This document shows, piece by piece, positions 28,024 to 33,639 of a stretch of 64,000 bases of DNA (the first letter of the stretch is position 1; every line of letters begins with the position of its first letter). Both the position numbers and the translations under genes were made by a program. The stretch is taken from positions 1 to 64,000 of IMG/VR virus record IMGVR_UViG_3300007609_000011; one strand, 5' to 3'. Below the pieces are notes generated by a model that saw only the letters and a list, made by a program, of their open reading frames with translations, was not told where the DNA came from and made no database searches. The DNA comes from an uncultured virus (IMG/VR IMGVR_UViG_3300007609_000011) (lineage: Duplodnaviria > Heunggongvirae > Uroviricota > Caudoviricetes).

Positions 28024-28872
28024 GTGGAAGGACAAACTGGTCACAATCCATTAGCACAATATTACAGACAGCCTAAGATTTATATAAAATTACCAAGCAA
28101 TGGAGAATTTTATCCCGAAGGAGCACTTGATAAAAGTGTTAACGAAGAATATCCTGTGTATGCAATGACCGCAAAGGATGAACTTTTGCTAAAAACACCA
28201 GATGCGTTGTTAAACGGACAAAGCACGGTTGATGTAATTAAAAGCTGTGTACCAGCTATTCTAGATCCATGGAAGATGCCTGTAATTGATGTTGACGCTG
28301 TCTTGATTGCTATAAGAATTGCAACATATGGAAACGAAATGGATGTCACACATATCTGCAAAGGTTGCGAATCGGAAGCAGATTATGTTGTTGACCTGAC
28401 TGACAGTCTAGGACATATTCAATCTATGAGATATGAAACCCGAGTTGATCACCCACCATTGATTATTCATCTTCACCCGTATTCATACAAAGACATGACC
28501 ACAGTTGCACTGAAAGCATTTGAGCAACAGCGAGTTTTAAAAATTGTGTCAGATCAAAACATGGAAGAAACAGAAAAATTGCAAAAGTTCAATGAAAGTT
28601 TTAACAAGCTGACGCAATTTACAATTGATACAATTACGTCAAGTATTACATCTATTGAAACTCCAGAAGGCGTTGTAACAAATTCAGAAATGATAAATGA
28701 TTTTATTAACAACACTTCAAAAGACATTTTTGAAAGCATTCAGACACACGTAAACGATTTTCGTGACAAGAGCGTATTGCCTACACAGAAAATTCAGTGT
28801 GAAAAATGTAGCGAGATTGCCGAAGTTTCAATTAGCATGGACATGTCTAATTTTTTCGCAGTAAGATCTTAA
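28024..28872 (+). CDS. gp26: Baseplate hub assembly chaperone (T4 gp26-like)
   Basis: KLPSNG, MTAKDELLL, D..LIAIRIATYG motifs and two CxxC pairs; GTG start with GGAG SD. Confidence 0.8.
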   Translation: MEGQTGHNPLAQYYRQPKIYIKLPSNGEFYPEGALDKSVNEEYPVYAMTAKDELLLKTPDALLNGQSTVDVIKSCVPAILDPWKMPVIDVDAVLIAIRIATYGNEMDVTHICKGCESEADYVVDLTDSLGHIQSMRYETRVDHPPLIIHLHPYSYKDMTTVALKAFEQQRVLKIVSDQNMEETEKLQKFNESFNKLTQFTIDTITSSITSIETPEGVVTNSEMINDFINNTSKDIFESIQTHVNDFRDKSVLPTQKIQCEKCSEIAEVSISMDMSNFFAVRS

Positions 28873-29084
28873 GACTGCCCGACGACCAGATCTTACTTGA
28901 AGGAAAAAAATTAGACAATGAAGCAAGGGCAATAAAAAAAGATCTCCTGCGTATCTGCTGGTTCATGCGCGGTTTAAATTATCAAGATGCACTAAATCTA
29001 ACTCCGGATGAGAGAGAAATCGTCGGAGAAATAGTAAAAGGTAATATGGAAACTACCAAGAAAAGCGGAATGCCTTTCTTTTAA
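28851..29084 (+). CDS. gp51-like hub/tail chaperone extension, probably reached by -1 ribosomal frameshift from the gp26-like gene
   Basis: The -1 frame is open from T TTT TTC (28851) to TAA 29084: FFRSKILRLPDDQILLEGKKLDNEARAIKKDLLRICWFMRGLNYQDALNLTPDEREIVGEIVKGNMETTKKSGMPFF; no SD-linked start of its own. Confidence 0.7.
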   Translation, partial: FFRSKILRLPDDQILLEGKKLDNEARAIKKDLLRICWFMRGLNYQDALNLTPDEREIVGEIVKGNMETTKKSGMPFF

Positions 29085-29677
29085 TTTGTTTTCAGTCCGG
29101 TGAACAGAGTTTCAAAATCTTCAAGGTCCATTTCAGGCAATTCACCCTGTGCAAGTTTATCCATAACGGGTTCGAATTGATTTTGGGCTAGATTATATCT
29201 CCCTGCTCTGAGATTATTTTTCATTTGTTTGAGCTGTGTAGCATCAGCGGTGTTTAATTTATCACCTCTAATCATTTTCTGTAAAATCTTTTGTTCAGGA
29301 GTTTCAGCTTGTCTCACAATGTTTTGCAATGCAGAGGTATCTTGAGAACTGATCGCATTTCCTTTGTATGCTGACTGAAATCCTTGCTGGTATGAATCAG
29401 ACGCTGATCGAGCTGTTCTGCCCACGGCTTTAATCGCGTCTCCAGGAGCTTTTAGTGCATTAATGCCTGCTCGGGCTACACCTCTAGCCGCACCTGCTAC
29501 GGCTTGTTTAGCCGCCGCACTAGGCGATGAAGGTATTAATGTTCCTATGGCTTTCTTTGCTATACTACCGGCAGCACCTATCATCGAAGGCAACGGAATT
29601 GCTTCATCGATATGATTGTCTCTCAGTAATTCTTTTTTGAAATCACGATACGATGTATCAAAATCATTTATTTTCAT
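29081..29677 (-). CDS. Hypothetical late protein (possible internal head protein)
   Basis: Ala-rich ORF; TATAAATA (29683-29690) lies 5 nt before ATG 29677. Confidence 0.7.
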   Translation of the reverse strand: MKINDFDTSYRDFKKELLRDNHIDEAIPLPSMIGAAGSIAKKAIGTLIPSSPSAAAKQAVAGAARGVARAGINALKAPGDAIKAVGRTARSASDSYQQGFQSAYKGNAISSQDTSALQNIVRQAETPEQKILQKMIRGDKLNTADATQLKQMKNNLRAGRYNLAQNQFEPVMDKLAQGELPEMDLEDFETLFTGLKTN

Positions 29678-29689
29678 AATCATATTTAT

Positions 29690-29764
29690 AACGAGCTAGA
29701 GCTCGTTTGCGTTTTCGCTAACGCTCAACGCATTTTTTTAATTATTAACTGCGAAGCAGTTTAA
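29690..29764. other. Cluster of three DNA hairpins including a GCGAAGC mini-hairpin
   Basis: AACGAGC-TAGA-GCTCGTT, TGCGTT...AACGCA and AACTGC-GAA-GCAGTT. Confidence 0.6.
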
Positions 29765-29766
29765 GT

Positions 29767-29847
29767 ATTATCTAGATTGTTCGGTCATAAAGAGCCCGTT
29801 GCGGGGCTCAATATTTTCTGCACATTATCTGAGTTGCACAGTCATAA
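29767..29847. repeat. Two 24-bp imperfect direct repeats (ATTATCTnnnTTGnnCnGTCATAA) flanking a hairpin
   Basis: 29767-29790 and 29824-29847 are identical at 18 of 24 positions. Confidence 0.65.
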
Positions 29848-30169
29848 CAGCATTAGGATTATATGTATTGCTACACTCACAGGCGGTTGGCCGATACCTG
29901 CTCATCCCGTTCGAGTTTCTTGTTGTCCAACGGCAGTCATGCATATAAAATGCTGTCTTCTACGCATGACCTGGGTTTATTCCCATCCTTAGCCTTTAAT
30001 GAATTCTTTTTTGTAAACGTGTCAAATCAGTTCATTAGGCATATCTGATCAGCATCATTTGGTAGTGACACGAGTCTCCGCCGTCAAACGGACATTCAAT
30101 TCCCTGCGCTACACATGTGCCAGGTATAAGTCCACCATATCTGCGCCGGTGGGGGCTTAATTGACGGTG
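29790..30169 (-). ncRNA. Candidate large structured non-coding RNA of unknown family downstream of the GIY-YIG nuclease
   Basis: At least nine nested stems, GCAA tetraloops and G-U pairs that work on the minus strand, one 8-bp pseudoknot; no credible ORF. Confidence 0.6.
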
Positions 30170-30625
30170 TTATTCGTCCAACTGAGCGGGACGATTTCCA
30201 TATATTTGTTCTAGTGTTTCTGTGAGTTGCCTTGAACTGCCTACACGCACATTGATAATACCGTTATAGTATTCGTCGGTTTCCAATACTCGCCTGTCGA
30301 ACTGCTCTTTTGCCTCTAGATATGATAGGACGCCTCTGCTGGGACAGAAATGTAATATTTCTCTAGTGAATTTTTCTTCGCCTAGTGCTTCTACGTCAGC
30401 CTGTAACTTGTCTGAAGATCCCCAATAGAGTCTCCAGTCTGATTCTTTTGTTCCACGCCTACGATTTTTTCTGCCTTTGAGTGGGGGTTTTGAAGTTTTG
30501 AACCGTGCCAGTTTTTTGCCTATGTATTTTTTATTGTTTGTTAAGTTAGTAATTAGATATACGAAGCCTTCGCAATCTTTTGGTAATTCATCAATCACTT
30601 TTCCCTGATAGGTCCACTGGCTCAT
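30170..30625 (-). CDS. GIY-YIG (Seg-like) endonuclease, 151 aa
   Basis: GFVYLITN...KKYIGKK, YWGSS, conserved E (LEAKEQ) and YN motifs; start reassigned to MSQWTYQG at 30625. Confidence 0.85.
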   Translation of the reverse strand: MSQWTYQGKVIDELPKDCEGFVYLITNLTNNKKYIGKKLARFKTSKPPLKGRKNRRRGTKESDWRLYWGSSDKLQADVEALGEEKFTREILHFCPSRGVLSYLEAKEQFDRRVLETDEYYNGIINVRVGSSRQLTETLEQIYGNRPAQLDE

Positions 30626-30857
30626 GATTATATGTATCTTTAGCCGGTCTCCCATTCTTGCCGTTTCTGGCTTTGCGTCGCTCCGCTCGCTTCTCTTGAA
30701 TTTCTTTGCGCCTCTCCGAGGCATGGTTTCTAATTTCGCTGAGCGCAAGCCTAGCTTTTAATCCTGCATCGTCTGAACCTTTGTATTCAAAACGATCTTG
30801 CCACTTAAAATATTCTTGAAATGCTTCAATCATTTTATCGTGACTGTCAGTAGCCAT
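30591..30857 (-). CDS. Small basic protein resembling histone H1-like Hc1 family
   Basis: KGSDDAGLKARLALSEI...RRKEIQE resembles the GNKAAGxRARKA pattern of Hc1-like proteins. Confidence 0.55.
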   Translation of the reverse strand: MATDSHDKMIEAFQEYFKWQDRFEYKGSDDAGLKARLALSEIRNHASERRKEIQEKRAERRKARNGKNGRPAKDTYNHEPVDLSGKSD

Positions 30858-32632
30858 TACACTATATCCACATCCGTGTTGTAGGAAGTGAATCCATTTT
30901 CTTTAATCACTTTCAAAACTTGGCTGACTCTATTAGTTAAGTCATCTCTGTGAGATATTAAAAACACATTTTTGTCACGCTCACGAGTCATTTTTTTCAG
31001 CACACTTATGCTGTTTTCAACACCGTTCGCATCTAATCCGTTGTCAATCAGTTCGTCAATAAACAACAAGTTAATTGAGTGATACAGATTCTCCCACACA
31101 TCTCTAAACGCAAAACTTAAAGACAAGATTAATCTGTTACGTTCACCTCTTGATAGGTTGTCAAAATCTAAATCCTGACCCAGCTGTGTGATAATCACGC
31201 TGAGATCATTCTGAAACTCTACCAGGTGCGGCAACCCGGTCTTGTTCAAATAGTATGTAAGACGTTGGTTCAAAAATGCAAGATTCTGATCGATAATGCG
31301 TTTACGAATGTACGAATCTTTGTTTGTGAGCAGTTTGTATAAAAACTCTTGATGATCTTTGATTCGAGTAAGCTCGTTAACTGTGTCCCAGTTAATTTCT
31401 TGCATTGCGCTGTCTTTCAGTTCTGCAATCTGATCATCGTAAGGATTAGTTTCTGCATTTTTATTTTCTAATTCTTTTCCTAAACCGTCAATTGTAGCTC
31501 TATGATTAAGTGCTTCTTCTAATGTACTGTATTCTACATTAGGGCAATTACCGAGTTCTCCGATCAAAGACAATGCTTCAGCATAATCCTTCAGTTCGGA
31601 TTGTTGAGCTGTAACACGAGACTGATATTCAGCAACCTGTTCTGCTTTCTTCTCCATCATTTGATCGTGTTGCTCGTCATGAACATCTTGTCCGCAAGCA
31701 TGACACTTATGATCCGCAAGTTTTTCCAGTTCAAGAACCAACTTATCGTAATGTCGCTGATCGTTTTCCATTTGTGCAGTCAATCTAGCTACGGTCTTTT
31801 CAAGTTGTTCCTTTTCTTTCTTATGTTCACGCCATTGTTGCAGTGCTTTTTGATTTTCAATTTCTACATCAATGTCGATATGATCTAACACAGAAATACT
31901 TTTTGCAATGTCTTTAAGAGTCTGTGCTTTGTTTTCTCCCCAAAGGCGTTGCTTACGTTCCAAACTTTCAATGCTTTGCTGTATGCGCTCGTTTGAGGCC
32001 CTCACGGCGTCAATGCGTGTAGTCTCCTGTTGTATCTCGTCTCTAGTAAACTTAATTTGTTCTTTGAGATTCTCTGCTTTTTCGGAAAGCAGTGTGATCC
32101 CTAACAGTTCTTCGATGATCGCACGTTGATCATTGCTCCGCATGCTGAGGAAAGGTTCGGTATAAGTGTTCAACGCCACAAGATGCTTAAACATATCATG
32201 GCTCATACCGAACAGATTTTCAATTTCTTTCTGTGTTTCTCGGCTGTCTCCTTGTGATTCATCAGCATCTTCTGGTTTTTGCTCATGTCCATTTATGGTA
32301 AGCTTCAACAGATTAGGTTTGCGCCCTCGTTCGATATGATATTCTACACCATTTTTTTCAAATGTACAAGTAACCAGCATGTTTTTGCCGTTGATCTTGT
32401 TAATAAGATTATCTTTCTTAATATTTGTAAGTGCTGACCCGTAAATTGCATATGACAGCCCGTTTACAATAGTTGTTTTTCCCGTGCCATTCCGTGCGCC
32501 ACCGTCATCACCACCGAGATCGAGATTTTCGCCTAGCACTAACGTAAGATGCCCTTTGTCGAAATCGATAGCTTGTGTTTGATTTCCGATACTCATAAAA
32601 TTTTGTGCGGTTAAAGTTTTAATTTTAATCAT
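30857..32632 (-). CDS. gp46: Recombination endonuclease ATPase subunit (gp46, Rad50/SbcC-like)
   Basis: Walker A NGTGKT, coiled coil with CHAC zinc hook, LSRGE signature, FIDE Walker B, ISH motif. Confidence 0.95.
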   Translation of the reverse strand: MIKIKTLTAQNFMSIGNQTQAIDFDKGHLTLVLGENLDLGGDDGGARNGTGKTTIVNGLSYAIYGSALTNIKKDNLINKINGKNMLVTCTFEKNGVEYHIERGRKPNLLKLTINGHEQKPEDADESQGDSRETQKEIENLFGMSHDMFKHLVALNTYTEPFLSMRSNDQRAIIEELLGITLLSEKAENLKEQIKFTRDEIQQETTRIDAVRASNERIQQSIESLERKQRLWGENKAQTLKDIAKSISVLDHIDIDVEIENQKALQQWREHKKEKEQLEKTVARLTAQMENDQRHYDKLVLELEKLADHKCHACGQDVHDEQHDQMMEKKAEQVAEYQSRVTAQQSELKDYAEALSLIGELGNCPNVEYSTLEEALNHRATIDGLGKELENKNAETNPYDDQIAELKDSAMQEINWDTVNELTRIKDHQEFLYKLLTNKDSYIRKRIIDQNLAFLNQRLTYYLNKTGLPHLVEFQNDLSVIITQLGQDLDFDNLSRGERNRLILSLSFAFRDVWENLYHSINLLFIDELIDNGLDANGVENSISVLKKMTRERDKNVFLISHRDDLTNRVSQVLKVIKENGFTSYNTDVDIV

Positions 32633-33639
32633 AAGTTCTGATAGATGTCCAATAAGATTTTTTGATCGTAGTTGTCGCTTTCGATTTGGTTAAGTTGATT
32701 CATTACGATAGTATCTACACTTTCGAAACTTAGATCTACCGGCTCCGACTGTGAATCCAGTTCTACCTTTTCCGGAATCATCATTAATTCACGCAGTCCG
32801 TACTTGGGAATAAGTTCTTCTTTGATAAAGTTTGCTTCCTCAAACGAAATTTCAACGTCAATGGTTGCTCGAACATGCATTTTTTCTCGAAGAACTTTGT
32901 CTGTATCTACTAATAGGTCACTTAACTTCATAGTTCTATACACGGGCTGATCAGGCCATGCTTCGTACTCCGGAGCACCACCCCACTCTAGTGTCATCAT
33001 ACCGCGTTCGTCGTCCCAAGCATCAGCATAGTTGTGAGGAAATGCATTTCCCATATACACAATATTTCCTTTCTGCTGACGCTTATGAAAGTGCCCTGAG
33101 AAAACATATTCTTGATTTTTAAAATGACTGGCCCTGAGATTACCGTGGTCTGGCATCTGTACCATTGCATTCATATAAAAACTAGGCAGTTCAAGATGTC
33201 CAAATATATATTTTGAAGTATCTTTTTCGATTTCTTTCCACTCGTCTCCTACAAGCCAAGGCAAAATAGTAACATTGCCTTCGCGTAACGGTTCTCTGAT
33301 AGGAACAACATTAGGAAATAATCGCATAAACTCTACAGAGTTAATTTCTCGCTTGTCTTTGTAAAACAAATCGTGATTACCGAGGATAAAATATACTTTT
33401 TCAAAGTTCTGACTTAGCCTTTCGAGATTACTAAGAGTATAATTCATAGTCGATACATCTGTCGAACTGCGATTGTGATGCCAGTCACCTAAAAAGATAC
33501 AGGTTTCTGCACCTTTTTCTCGTGCTCTTTTGCAAAACCATGCTACAAAATCTTCACAGTCTGTATTATGCACACGGCTTCCACTTTTCATACCGAAATG
33601 TATGTCAGTGAAACAGGCCGCTTTTTTAAATAAGTTCAT
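32629..33639 (-). CDS. gp47: Recombination endonuclease nuclease subunit (gp47, Mre11/SbcD-like)
   Basis: Metallophosphoesterase motifs DIH, GD, GNHD, GH and GHFH. Confidence 0.95.
   Translation of the reverse strand: MNLFKKAACFTDIHFGMKSGSRVHNTDCEDFVAWFCKRAREKGAETCIFLGDWHHNRSSTDVSTMNYTLSNLERLSQNFEKVYFILGNHDLFYKDKREINSVEFMRLFPNVVPIREPLREGNVTILPWLVGDEWKEIEKDTSKYIFGHLELPSFYMNAMVQMPDHGNLRASHFKNQEYVFSGHFHKRQQKGNIVYMGNAFPHNYADAWDDERGMMTLEWGGAPEYEAWPDQPVYRTMKLSDLLVDTDKVLREKMHVRATIDVEISFEEANFIKEELIPKYGLRELMMIPEKVELDSQSEPVDLSFESVDTIVMNQLNQIESDNYDQKILLDIYQNL

Follow-up and report, generated by a model that had tools for sequence, protein, structure and literature searches.

In the systems of HEARO/omega-RNA with IscB or TnpB and of the IS110 bridge RNA, a mobile element encodes a structured RNA next to a small DNA-acting enzyme, and long, intricately folded RNAs, GOLLD and ROOL, occur in phages and prophages. 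We know of no function for GOLLD or ROOL. SegB, a free-standing GIY-YIG homing endonuclease of the T4 tRNA gene cluster, is reported to recognize a conserved tRNA-gene motif and to spread its own gene together with neighbouring tRNA genes (PMC2330249). The Polynucleobacter-1 motif was described by Weinberg et al. in 2010 (PMC2864571); its entry in a table of that paper gives 'y' for RNA, a tentative 'y' for cis-regulatory, '?' for switch and 'Burkholderiales, fresh water/estuary' for range. In a full-text literature search for 'Polynucleobacter-1' and 'RF01718', only this original paper mentioned them. Here we analyze a stretch of 64,000 nucleotides (nt) from an uncultured virus (positions 1 to 64,000 of IMG/VR record IMGVR_UViG_3300007609_000011), hereafter the window, in which a ~480-nt form of this RNA fills the gap directly behind a short GIY-YIG nuclease gene. 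We think that the RNA is probably an autonomous accessory element, and that the GIY-YIG gene fills a homing-endonuclease slot bordering the RNA gene instead of encoding the partner of the RNA.

The locus shares features with each of these systems. It belongs to the same family as Polynucleobacter-1 (RF01718), as judged from its score, its P1-P4 helices and the pseudoknot of the long form, but the 2010 table entry lists that motif from Burkholderiales and fresh water or estuaries (PMC2864571), whereas most copies found here lie in large T4-type phages. As with SegB, a GIY-YIG gene adjoins conserved structured-RNA genes of a T4-type phage; unlike SegB, the protein is only 151 amino acids (aa) long and has no DNA-binding extension, its gene is near-universal at the junction rather than sporadic, and its cleavage and homing are putative. 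As in omega-RNA and bridge RNA, a short variable segment lies within a conserved scaffold. In contrast to those systems, the enzymes belong to other families, RNA and enzyme occur apart, and the variable segment is present in two identical copies with no matching target within ~3 kilobases (kb). Unlike GOLLD or ROOL loci, the gap has no sequence or model match to either RNA.

The gap is a long form of the Polynucleobacter-1 RNA

The 486-nt gap at 29684-30169 on the minus strand is flanked by the GIY-YIG open reading frame (ORF; 30170-30625, minus strand) and by a further minus-strand ORF (29081-29683). An earlier note, made from the letters of the window, had pointed to a large gap after the nuclease stop codon that folds on the minus strand. 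This was confirmed: the leader begins 2 nt past the stop codon, and none of 100 shuffled sequences was as stable as the minus-strand fold (-135.6 kcal/mol, z = -2.97). A cmscan search identified RF01718, the Polynucleobacter-1 RNA, at 30015-30157 (minus strand); the match scores 104 bits, well above the gathering score (37 bits), with E 3.2e-23. The match spans positions 1-141 of the 141-position model, is not truncated and has no non-canonical pair flagged in its alignment, and the Rfam scan of 29600-30700 returned nothing besides RF01718 at E <= 1. The RNA has thus been described before, contrary to what the earlier note had suggested; the note itself had named a match to a known Rfam family as a refuting outcome. 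A group I intron, which the same note had brought up, is contradicted by the lack of any intron model match at E <= 1 and by the start of the nuclease ORF, which overlaps the upstream ORF and leaves no 5' RNA part.

The Rfam model retains only the first 141 nt of a longer element. The 2010 seed alignment has 16 sequences, 10 of them in a long form (about 275-300 nt), and the members JCVI_SCAF_1101668617863 and ..644630 are near-identical or close to the window RNA, 3' extension included (PMC2864571). The seed structure lines already show the UGGG/CCCA hairpin, the long hairpin and the CAGG-CGG helix, and they draw a pseudoknot (SS_cons_1) between the loop of the long hairpin and the 3' end (PMC2864571). 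The RNA family itself, the 3' extension and the loop-to-3'-strand pseudoknot have therefore been known since 2010. Absent from the seed structure lines are a leader-to-P3-loop pseudoknot, a 3-bp leader-to-P1-loop pairing and a tail with twin boxes; new here are this second pseudoknot, the distribution over phages and Burkholderiales, and the tail with its twin 7-nt boxes. Among cultured phages, blastn found nothing that matches the gap. In its entirety the gap forms a single conserved element of ~480 nt, the long form of RF01718, with the following parts in 5' to 3' order:

30161-30167, minus strand: 5' leader strand CCGUCAA, starting 2 nt after the GIY-YIG stop codon; covaries with the P3 loop
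30015-30157, minus strand: 5' domain, the Rfam Polynucleobacter-1 model with P1-P4; supported by cmscan (104 bits) and covariation
29847-30014, minus strand: 3' domain with the UGGG/CCCA and GUCAUGC/GCAUGAC hairpins, the CAGG-CGG junction helix, the enclosing helix GGAU/AUCC and the pseudoknot; supported by the 2010 seed and covariation
29823-29834, minus strand: twin box A, ACUC followed by the 7-nt box AGAUAAU (29824-29830); identical to box B
29792-29809, minus strand: hairpin GAGCCC-CGCAAC-GGGCUC between the twin boxes; covaries, with an equivalent hairpin at the same place in bacterial copies
29766-29777, minus strand: twin box B, AUCU followed by the 7-nt box AGAUAAU (29767-29773); identical to box A
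29747-29761, minus strand: hairpin AACUGC-UUCG-GCAGUU; stem covaries
29690-29731, minus strand: two terminal hairpins, the first with the motif UGAGCGnnAGCGAAA, which is common to marine and bacterial copies

The structure covaries as RNA of the minus strand

Relatives of the RNA were collected with two pattern scans of viral contigs. The first gave 13 loci; from the second, which yielded more than 120 matches, 80 loci were taken. L129 and L157 were left out of the 80, having no alignment to the RNA and none of the flanking genes. Labels of this kind denote related loci gathered from viral contigs or bacterial genomes for comparison. In the 5' part (43 sequences), P1 (CCACC/GGTGG) was paired in 98.1% of alignment cells and P2 (CCTG/CAGG) in 88.6%, each with changes on both sides at 5/5 pairs. 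Across 73 distinct sequences, RNAalifold predicted P1, P4 and P4b with 13/16 pairs changed on both sides, and at most pairs of P4 and P4b (CGTGTCA/TGACACG and ATCAG/CTGAT) such changes were found in 13-37 sequences. The stem CCGTCAA/TTGACGG, which Rfam does not draw either, proved to be a pseudoknot of the leader (30161-30167, upstream of the Rfam model) with the loop of hairpin P3 (30081-30087). Its pairing held up, with 7/7 pairs changed on both sides and 67% of cells paired in a plain MAFFT alignment of the 43 sequences; the pair 14/106, for example, occurs as GC (11), CG (10), AU (8), GU (2) and UA (2). In the bacterial copies described below, the leader CTACYG is complementary to a loop CRGTAG at the variable position in 38/40; of the other two, one has a G-U and one a mismatch. 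A 3-bp pairing between leader (GCY) and P1 loop (RGC) was 93.8% paired in the 43 sequences, with GC in 33 and AU in 7 at one pair.

The 3' part was assessed in 34 sequences. The 8-bp pseudoknot of ACAGCATT (29949-56) with AATGCTGT (29847-54) was 89.5% paired with both-side changes at 7/8 pairs, one of which is GC in 20 sequences against AU in 12. Covariation extended to 10/10 pairs of the long hairpin GTCATGC/GCATGAC (74% paired) and 4/4 pairs of the enclosing helix GGAU/AUCC (98.5% paired). The earlier note had drawn this pseudoknot and most of the stems, and the covariation check in related phages that it called for upheld the pseudoknot, CCACC/GGTGG, CCTG/CAGG, CGTGTCA/TGACACG, ATCAG/CTGAT and GTCATGC/GCATGAC. 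For CCGTCAA/TTGACGG the pairing was right and the pseudoknotted form was missed. Others stood in part: CAGG-CGG/CCG-CCTG is 100% paired and GAGCCC..GGGCTC 72% paired, each covarying at 2 pairs (the remainder of the former invariant); TGGG/CCCA has a compensatory change in L003 (GGG to GAG with CCC to CTC) but is just 41% paired in this ragged alignment; and the TGTA-GCAA-TACA hairpin exists as an option of certain clades only. The CCGTT/AACGG stem was not borne out, being mostly invariant and unpaired at one pair in 14/34 sequences.

Taken as a whole, the 3' domain and tail had 79.5% of cells paired, against 68.0 +/- 0.6 in shuffles (0/500 reaching the observed value), and a covariation score of 0.305 against 0.137 in shuffles and 0.07-0.13 with slid partners. 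For the 5' part, the corresponding values were 82.3% against 66.1% and 0.467 against 0.199 (43 sequences). G-U pairs are frequent on the minus strand, with UG at 29 and 20 for two pairs of the 5' part and 9 for one of the 3' part. These pairs argue for RNA of the minus strand, as the earlier note had proposed from GNRA loops and G-U pairs. The gap is a conserved, strand-specific and heavily covarying RNA structure.

The tail carries twin boxes that vary in concert

On the 3' side of the pseudoknot, the tail has a conserved order: GUGAC-N6-ACUC with a 7-nt box, a hairpin, GUGAC-N6-AUCU with the same box, the UUCG hairpin and two more hairpins, the first with UGAGCGnnAGCGAAA. The stem of the UUCG hairpin covaries (UA 9, CG 4 and AU 2 at one pair; GC 18, UA 5 and AU 3 at another) around a conserved CUUCG loop, and a compensatory change from GAGC/GCUC to GAUC/GAUC was found in the terminal hairpins of L002 and L003. 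Boxes A and B were identical in 75/80 loci of the second phage scan, 7/13 of the first, 25/40 bacterial loci and, in two samples of viral loci defined below, 46/80 chosen by the gp46-like protein and 27/80 chosen by GIY-YIG. Twin boxes were absent from 20 GIY-YIG loci of opposite orientation (0/20) and from phage Melnitz. The box has 20 sequence variants, among them AGAUAAU (window), GGAUGAU, ACAUGAA, GCAUAAU and the bacterial AGCGAAA, and the variant does not track the clade of the adjoining GIY-YIG gene.

No complement or third copy of the box occurred at a consistent place within ~3 kb of 183-189 distinct elements, and an exact 7-mer complement inside the element was present in only 2/189. 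With G-U pairs allowed, 43 matches were obtained among the 189 elements; they cluster on the U-rich 3' strand of P4 and were judged compositional. That two copies are kept identical through so many variants points to a common co-evolving partner or to gene conversion. The tail architecture is the same in bacterial and phage copies; the whole gap is therefore one element of phage and bacterial contexts and not a feature of the phage junction. Two other explanations of the tail were rejected. Sigma-70 or late promoters were ruled out by the spacing of the boxes and by variants such as ACAUGAA and AGCGAAA, and terminators of the convergent baseplate operon (two of the hairpins are terminator-like on the plus strand) were dropped because bacterial copies share the tail and lack that operon.

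Bacterial copies occur without the nuclease

A seed-derived pattern run against 185,579 species genomes gave 40 loci (L215-L254), in Polynucleobacter, Limnohabitans, Comamonadaceae and a few differently labelled metagenome-assembled genomes. Three assemblies have two copies each, 9 and 18 kb apart in two of them and on separate contigs in the third. In 40/40 loci, no homolog of the GIY-YIG, gp46-like or baseplate genes was found within 3 kb. In the 12 loci examined for context, a divergent DUF6641 gene usually lies 170-210 nt upstream of the RNA, and a 188-aa Phage_integrase catalytic domain is encoded 0.5-0.9 kb downstream, sometimes behind other ORFs. The bacterial copies look like an undescribed mobile island, and Burkholderiales are probable hosts of the freshwater myophages that carry the RNA. 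The RNA is best regarded as an autonomous element, being present also in bacterial islands without the nuclease.

A small nuclease gene precedes the RNA in phages

The picture differs in phages. The 94 RNA-bearing viral loci, window included, represent 85 distinct RNA sequences, 5 of which are cut off upstream, leaving 80 assessable. A GIY-YIG gene lies upstream of the RNA in 77/80. Its end is at most 60 nt from the estimated RNA start in 70 and 63-131 nt away in 3 more; in the other 4, one extra ORF (257-341 aa) intervenes. The three loci without GIY-YIG are L121 and L159, each with a PDDEXK_15 gene, and L146, with an unrelated ORF of 649 aa. The PDDEXK_15 nuclease (173-188 aa) occupies the exact GIY-YIG position in L121 (1746-2267), L159 and L271; the L121 protein matched PF24608 (E 2.5e-29) and phrog_244, and the other two were assigned by homology.

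The extra ORF has no Pfam family in L110, L118 (the same sequence as L171), L130 and L167, and upstream, in place of gp46, are genes with radical-SAM-like CxxxCxxC motifs.

No sigma-70-like promoter or terminator-like site was predicted on the minus strand in 29300-31000. Because the leader starts 2 nt after the stop codon, no promoter or terminator of its own is apparent and the RNA elsewhere too abuts the stop codon of the upstream gene, be it GIY-YIG, PDDEXK or the extra ORF, the RNA would be co-transcribed with that gene.

The linkage was also sampled from the flanking genes, which in the window are arranged as follows:

32629-33639, minus strand: Metallophos protein
30857-32632, minus strand: SbcC/gp46-like ATPase (AAA_23 and SMC_N)
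between the gp46-like and GIY-YIG genes, minus strand: ORF of 88 aa (orf88)
30170-30625, minus strand: short GIY-YIG nuclease gene (151 aa) of SegE type (PF19835, E 1.8e-34 over residues 4-124)
29081-29683, minus strand: downstream ORF of 200 aa without a family
28024-28872, plus strand: T4_baseplate protein, convergent on the minus-strand genes

We chose 80 loci by their gp46-like protein, blind to GIY-YIG and RNA, and searched them with R1, a covariance model built in this analysis. R1 found the RNA in 42/80; a GIY-YIG gene ends 11-80 nt before the match in 41/42 and a PDDEXK gene takes its place in the other (L271). Of 53 loci with at least 1.5 kb downstream, 37 have GIY-YIG and RNA, 9 have GIY-YIG without RF01718, 4 were not assessable and 3 have neither within 3.5 kb.

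Seen from the nuclease, the association is far looser. Relatives of the GIY-YIG protein turned up in more than 567 viral stretches; the best 80 are 75-91% identical to it, and RF01718 was present in 2/50 records drawn from these. R1 with default filters gave 0 credible matches in 78 GIY-YIG loci (L004-L081) and found 8/8 positive controls; with filters off it found none in 16 of the 78, and nhmmer with a profile of the phage RNA found nothing in the 78 or in Melnitz. The proteins of these 78 loci are 75-87% identical to the window protein, and most of the genes still lie between gp46-like and baseplate genes, in two orientations. In the 20 loci of opposite orientation an ORF directly follows the nuclease gene and there is no RNA, and in phage Melnitz an 80%-identical GIY-YIG gene follows nrdB, again with no RNA behind it. 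An early reading from the 2/50 records, that RNA and GIY-YIG do not co-occur, was reversed for phages by the search from the RNA side. The association on which the earlier note built is thus real and tight in phages seen from the RNA (77/80 assessable loci; 41/42 in the gp46 sample) and is missing in bacteria and, with 2/50, nearly so from the nuclease side. Its proposal that the RNA may be the partner of the nuclease is not supported, given the 40/40 bacterial loci with RNA and no GIY-YIG and the 78 loci and Melnitz with GIY-YIG and no RNA.

Other long noncoding regions were found in the same slot. Of the GIY-YIG loci that lack RF01718, 68 extend for 600 nt or more downstream, and in 31 of these a stretch of at least 300 nt contains no ORF. 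These ORF-free regions form two sequence clusters of 21 and 12 loci (340-755 nt) in marine and some freshwater relatives; the larger has conserved, paired-looking blocks and the same twin-box tail, and L305 (6190-6700), from a freshwater relative, has such a region as well. Inspection by eye of some marine loci (L006, L019, L044, L054) and of L305 revealed a hairpin resembling P1 together with an ACUACCC..GG motif. Neither Rfam nor R1 detects these regions as copies of RF01718 (R1: none in the 78 loci, 16 of them also with filters off), yet by these features they may be homologous to it.

The nuclease gene behaves as an exchangeable cassette

The GIY-YIG protein matches PF19835 (SegE_GIY-YIG, E 1.8e-34) and phrog_447 (E 5e-37), with the GIY, YIG, R, E and N columns invariant among 30 homologs. 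The top three Foldseek matches of its AlphaFold model (predicted local distance difference test score 87) in the PDB are the I-TevI catalytic domain, at probabilities of 0.87-0.96 and weak E values of 0.1-0.3. T4 endonuclease II was considered as the nearest relative and set aside, as there was no PDB sequence match and the fold search places I-TevI first. Only a single helix (residues 132-142) follows the catalytic fold, homologs are 142-151 aa long and no C-terminal DNA-binding domain is present, in agreement with the earlier note, which had remarked on the lack of a long DNA-binding region. The gene is an ORF of its own between orf88, next to the gp46-like gene, and the RNA and baseplate genes; it lies in neither an intron nor an intein.

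In phrog_447 and in many phage records of RefSeq, homologs of this short family bear the label 'NAD synthetase', which looks like a propagated mis-annotation.

A quick IQ-TREE phylogeny of 139 distinct rows divides the GIY-YIG proteins into two clades, each with a support of 100 in the SH-like approximate likelihood ratio test and each with RNA-linked genes. All 60 rows of clade I are RNA-linked; clade II, which includes the window gene and Melnitz, has 63 rows without RNA and 16 with it. In a FastTree phylogeny of the RNA, the RNAs linked to clade II fall in at least four places, and the RNAs of L108 (clade II nuclease) and L109 (clade I) are sisters with a support of 1.0. Identities to the nuclease are also uncoupled from those of the gp46-like flank, as in L006 (GIY-YIG 87%, gp46 55%) and L098 (GIY-YIG 50%, gp46 68%). 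From the two deep clades beside sister RNAs, the replacement by PDDEXK and this uncoupling, the nuclease gene appears to be a replaceable cassette that has been exchanged beside a conserved RNA.

Genomic neighbourhood and phage type

The window comes from a 78-kb viral record with a completeness of 22% (CheckV). Among cultured phages, its gp46-like protein is matched best by the jumbo phages Phosso and PA5oct (48% identity), and the longest related contigs reach 345 kb; the source virus is therefore a large T4-type myophage. The start of the GIY-YIG gene overlaps the last 35 nt of orf88 (30591-30625). The product of orf88 is basic and conserved 5' of GIY-YIG in many loci, and has a weak Hc1 match (E 0.0086) below the cut-off. 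Downstream, a motif TATAAATA, which we take to be of the T4 late-promoter type, lies at 29675-29690 (minus strand) and overlaps the first ATG of the 200-aa ORF. The likely true start of this ORF is the second ATG (MKINDF); similar M(K/R)IN(D/E) starts belong to ORFs that follow the element in L121, L146, L272, L305 and L327, and the 200-aa ORF is absent from L002 and L003.

The window has a second Rfam match, to the freshwater-2 RNA (RF02980; 18503-18584, minus strand; 61 bits against a gathering score of 49.9).

Discussion

The RNA and the GIY-YIG gene are independent of each other. Obligate co-occurrence, as expected of an omega-RNA-type pair, was not observed, each occurring alone; a working RNA-nuclease pair is unsupported because each is found without the other, nuclease clades are swapped beside the RNA and PDDEXK substitutes for GIY-YIG. 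We therefore consider an autonomous RNA with a homing-endonuclease slot at its edge the probable explanation. The ~480-nt RNA would be a minus-strand product that extends, at the 3' end, the transcript of whichever gene lies upstream, and it consists of three parts: a 5' domain with the leader-P3-loop pseudoknot, a 3' domain with the loop-to-3'-strand pseudoknot, and the twin-box tail. Its size, two pseudoknots and variable twin boxes favour a trans-acting role, so that it most likely works with a protein or as a ribozyme. Its carriers are large freshwater myophages of the T4 type and, in Burkholderiales, elements with an integrase gene. In the phages, the RNA gene would have a slot for nucleases on its 5' side, filled by the GIY-YIG gene in the manner of a free-standing homing endonuclease: by analogy with SegB, the enzyme may cut genomes that lack the gene near the conserved junction, and repair would copy in the gene together with flanking DNA.

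Several observations weigh against this explanation. First, the GIY-YIG protein has no DNA-binding domain beyond its catalytic fold. Second, GIY-YIG is present at the junction in 50/53 loci of the gp46 sample with at least 1.5 kb downstream, which is unusual for a selfish, sporadic gene, and an empty site with orf88 directly followed by the RNA was not seen among the sampled relatives; a near-universal nuclease without empty sites would also fit a fixed, useful gene. Third, the RNA label on the GIY-YIG tree needs 5 changes, of which the strongly supported branches force only 1. Lastly, the arrangement of nuclease gene, long folded region and twin-box tail is a general one in this phage group; RF01718 is one version of its core, and the arrangement reaches beyond the Rfam family.

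Of the alternatives, a cis-acting 3' untranslated region survives best, and we consider it unlikely. Such an element would act on the upstream operon's mRNA, protecting or regulating it; it might, for instance, block 3' exonucleases or limit the expression of a toxic nuclease. It would suit an RNA that in phages always abuts the stop codon of the upstream ORF, has no predicted promoter of its own and usually follows a nuclease gene. However, the bacterial element has a divergent gene upstream and so requires its own promoter, the upstream gene of L146 is an unrelated 649-aa ORF, two pseudoknots and ~480 conserved nt far exceed the needs of a stabilizer, and the twin boxes are left unexplained.

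It is distinctly improbable that RNA and enzyme form a functional pair, in which the RNA, perhaps through its twin boxes, would give the adjoining small nuclease its target specificity or a scaffold. In phages this enzyme would be GIY-YIG or PDDEXK, and in bacteria the tyrosine recombinase that has only a catalytic domain, by analogy with omega-RNA and bridge-RNA systems. The tight adjacency in phages would be explained, as would three neighbouring enzymes that are all minimal catalytic domains with no recognizable DNA-binding part, hypervariable 7-nt boxes kept as two identical copies across 20 variants of a conserved scaffold, and the structured region with the same tail that GIY-YIG loci without RF01718 often have. 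Yet GIY-YIG proteins of 77-80% identity have an ORF directly behind them and no twin boxes (0/20 opposite-orientation loci, Melnitz), the same RNA stands beside unrelated nuclease folds and two deep GIY-YIG clades, and the bacterial integrase gene is 0.5-0.9 kb away, sometimes behind other ORFs. Nor is there a consistent complement or third copy of the box within ~3 kb (183 elements), and the box variant is independent of the GIY-YIG clade.

A DNA-level element at a junction of gene modules, for instance an origin of replication, a recombination site or a region bound by protein, with the boxes as iteron-like or core-type sites for a co-evolving protein, is highly improbable. In its favour, the direct repeats change together, the bacterial copies have an integrase gene nearby, and the phage location is between recombination-nuclease and baseplate genes; tyrosine-recombinase sites have overlap regions comparable to the 7-nt identical core. 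Against this, G-U pairs help to maintain the base pairing, and on the opposite strand these would be A-C, the pseudoknots and the GNRA and UUCG loops point to RNA, and no inverted binding arms were seen around the boxes on reading the sequences.

We see only a slight chance that the RNA is programmable, its hypervariable, identical 7-nt boxes acting as specificity determinants that direct the adjoining minimal enzymes (in Burkholderiales the tyrosine recombinase with only a catalytic domain, in phages GIY-YIG or PDDEXK). The boxes, standing behind a conserved AACUC or AAUCU plus GUG(U)RAS motif, would then base-pair with a target nucleic acid or match a protein that evolves along with them.

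Least likely of all is a 5' cis-regulator of the downstream gene: a same-strand ORF with an M(K/R)IN(D/E) start does follow the element in the window, L121, L146, L272, L305 and L327, but convergent opposite-strand genes follow it directly in L002, L003 (the L082 contig), L089, L091, L092 and L093, with no same-strand match to the 200-aa ORF, the late-promoter-type motif TATAAATA lies between element and ORF in several loci, and the downstream genes differ in bacteria. The role would match the tentative 'cis-reg: y' in the 2010 table entry, which marks the motif as possibly cis-regulatory (PMC2864571).

An RNA that has been an orphan since 2010 is now placed in the genomes of T4-type phages and in integrase-bearing bacterial elements. 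With its ~480-nt extension, second pseudoknot and concerted boxes, the family becomes experimentally approachable, as transcripts, neighbours and nucleotides to swap can be named. The locus also indicates that the adjacency of a nuclease gene and a folded RNA can come from a homing-endonuclease slot, without a working partnership. If the RNA were nevertheless programmable, it would represent a new class of RNA-directed mobile-element machinery, common to phages and the islands of their hosts.

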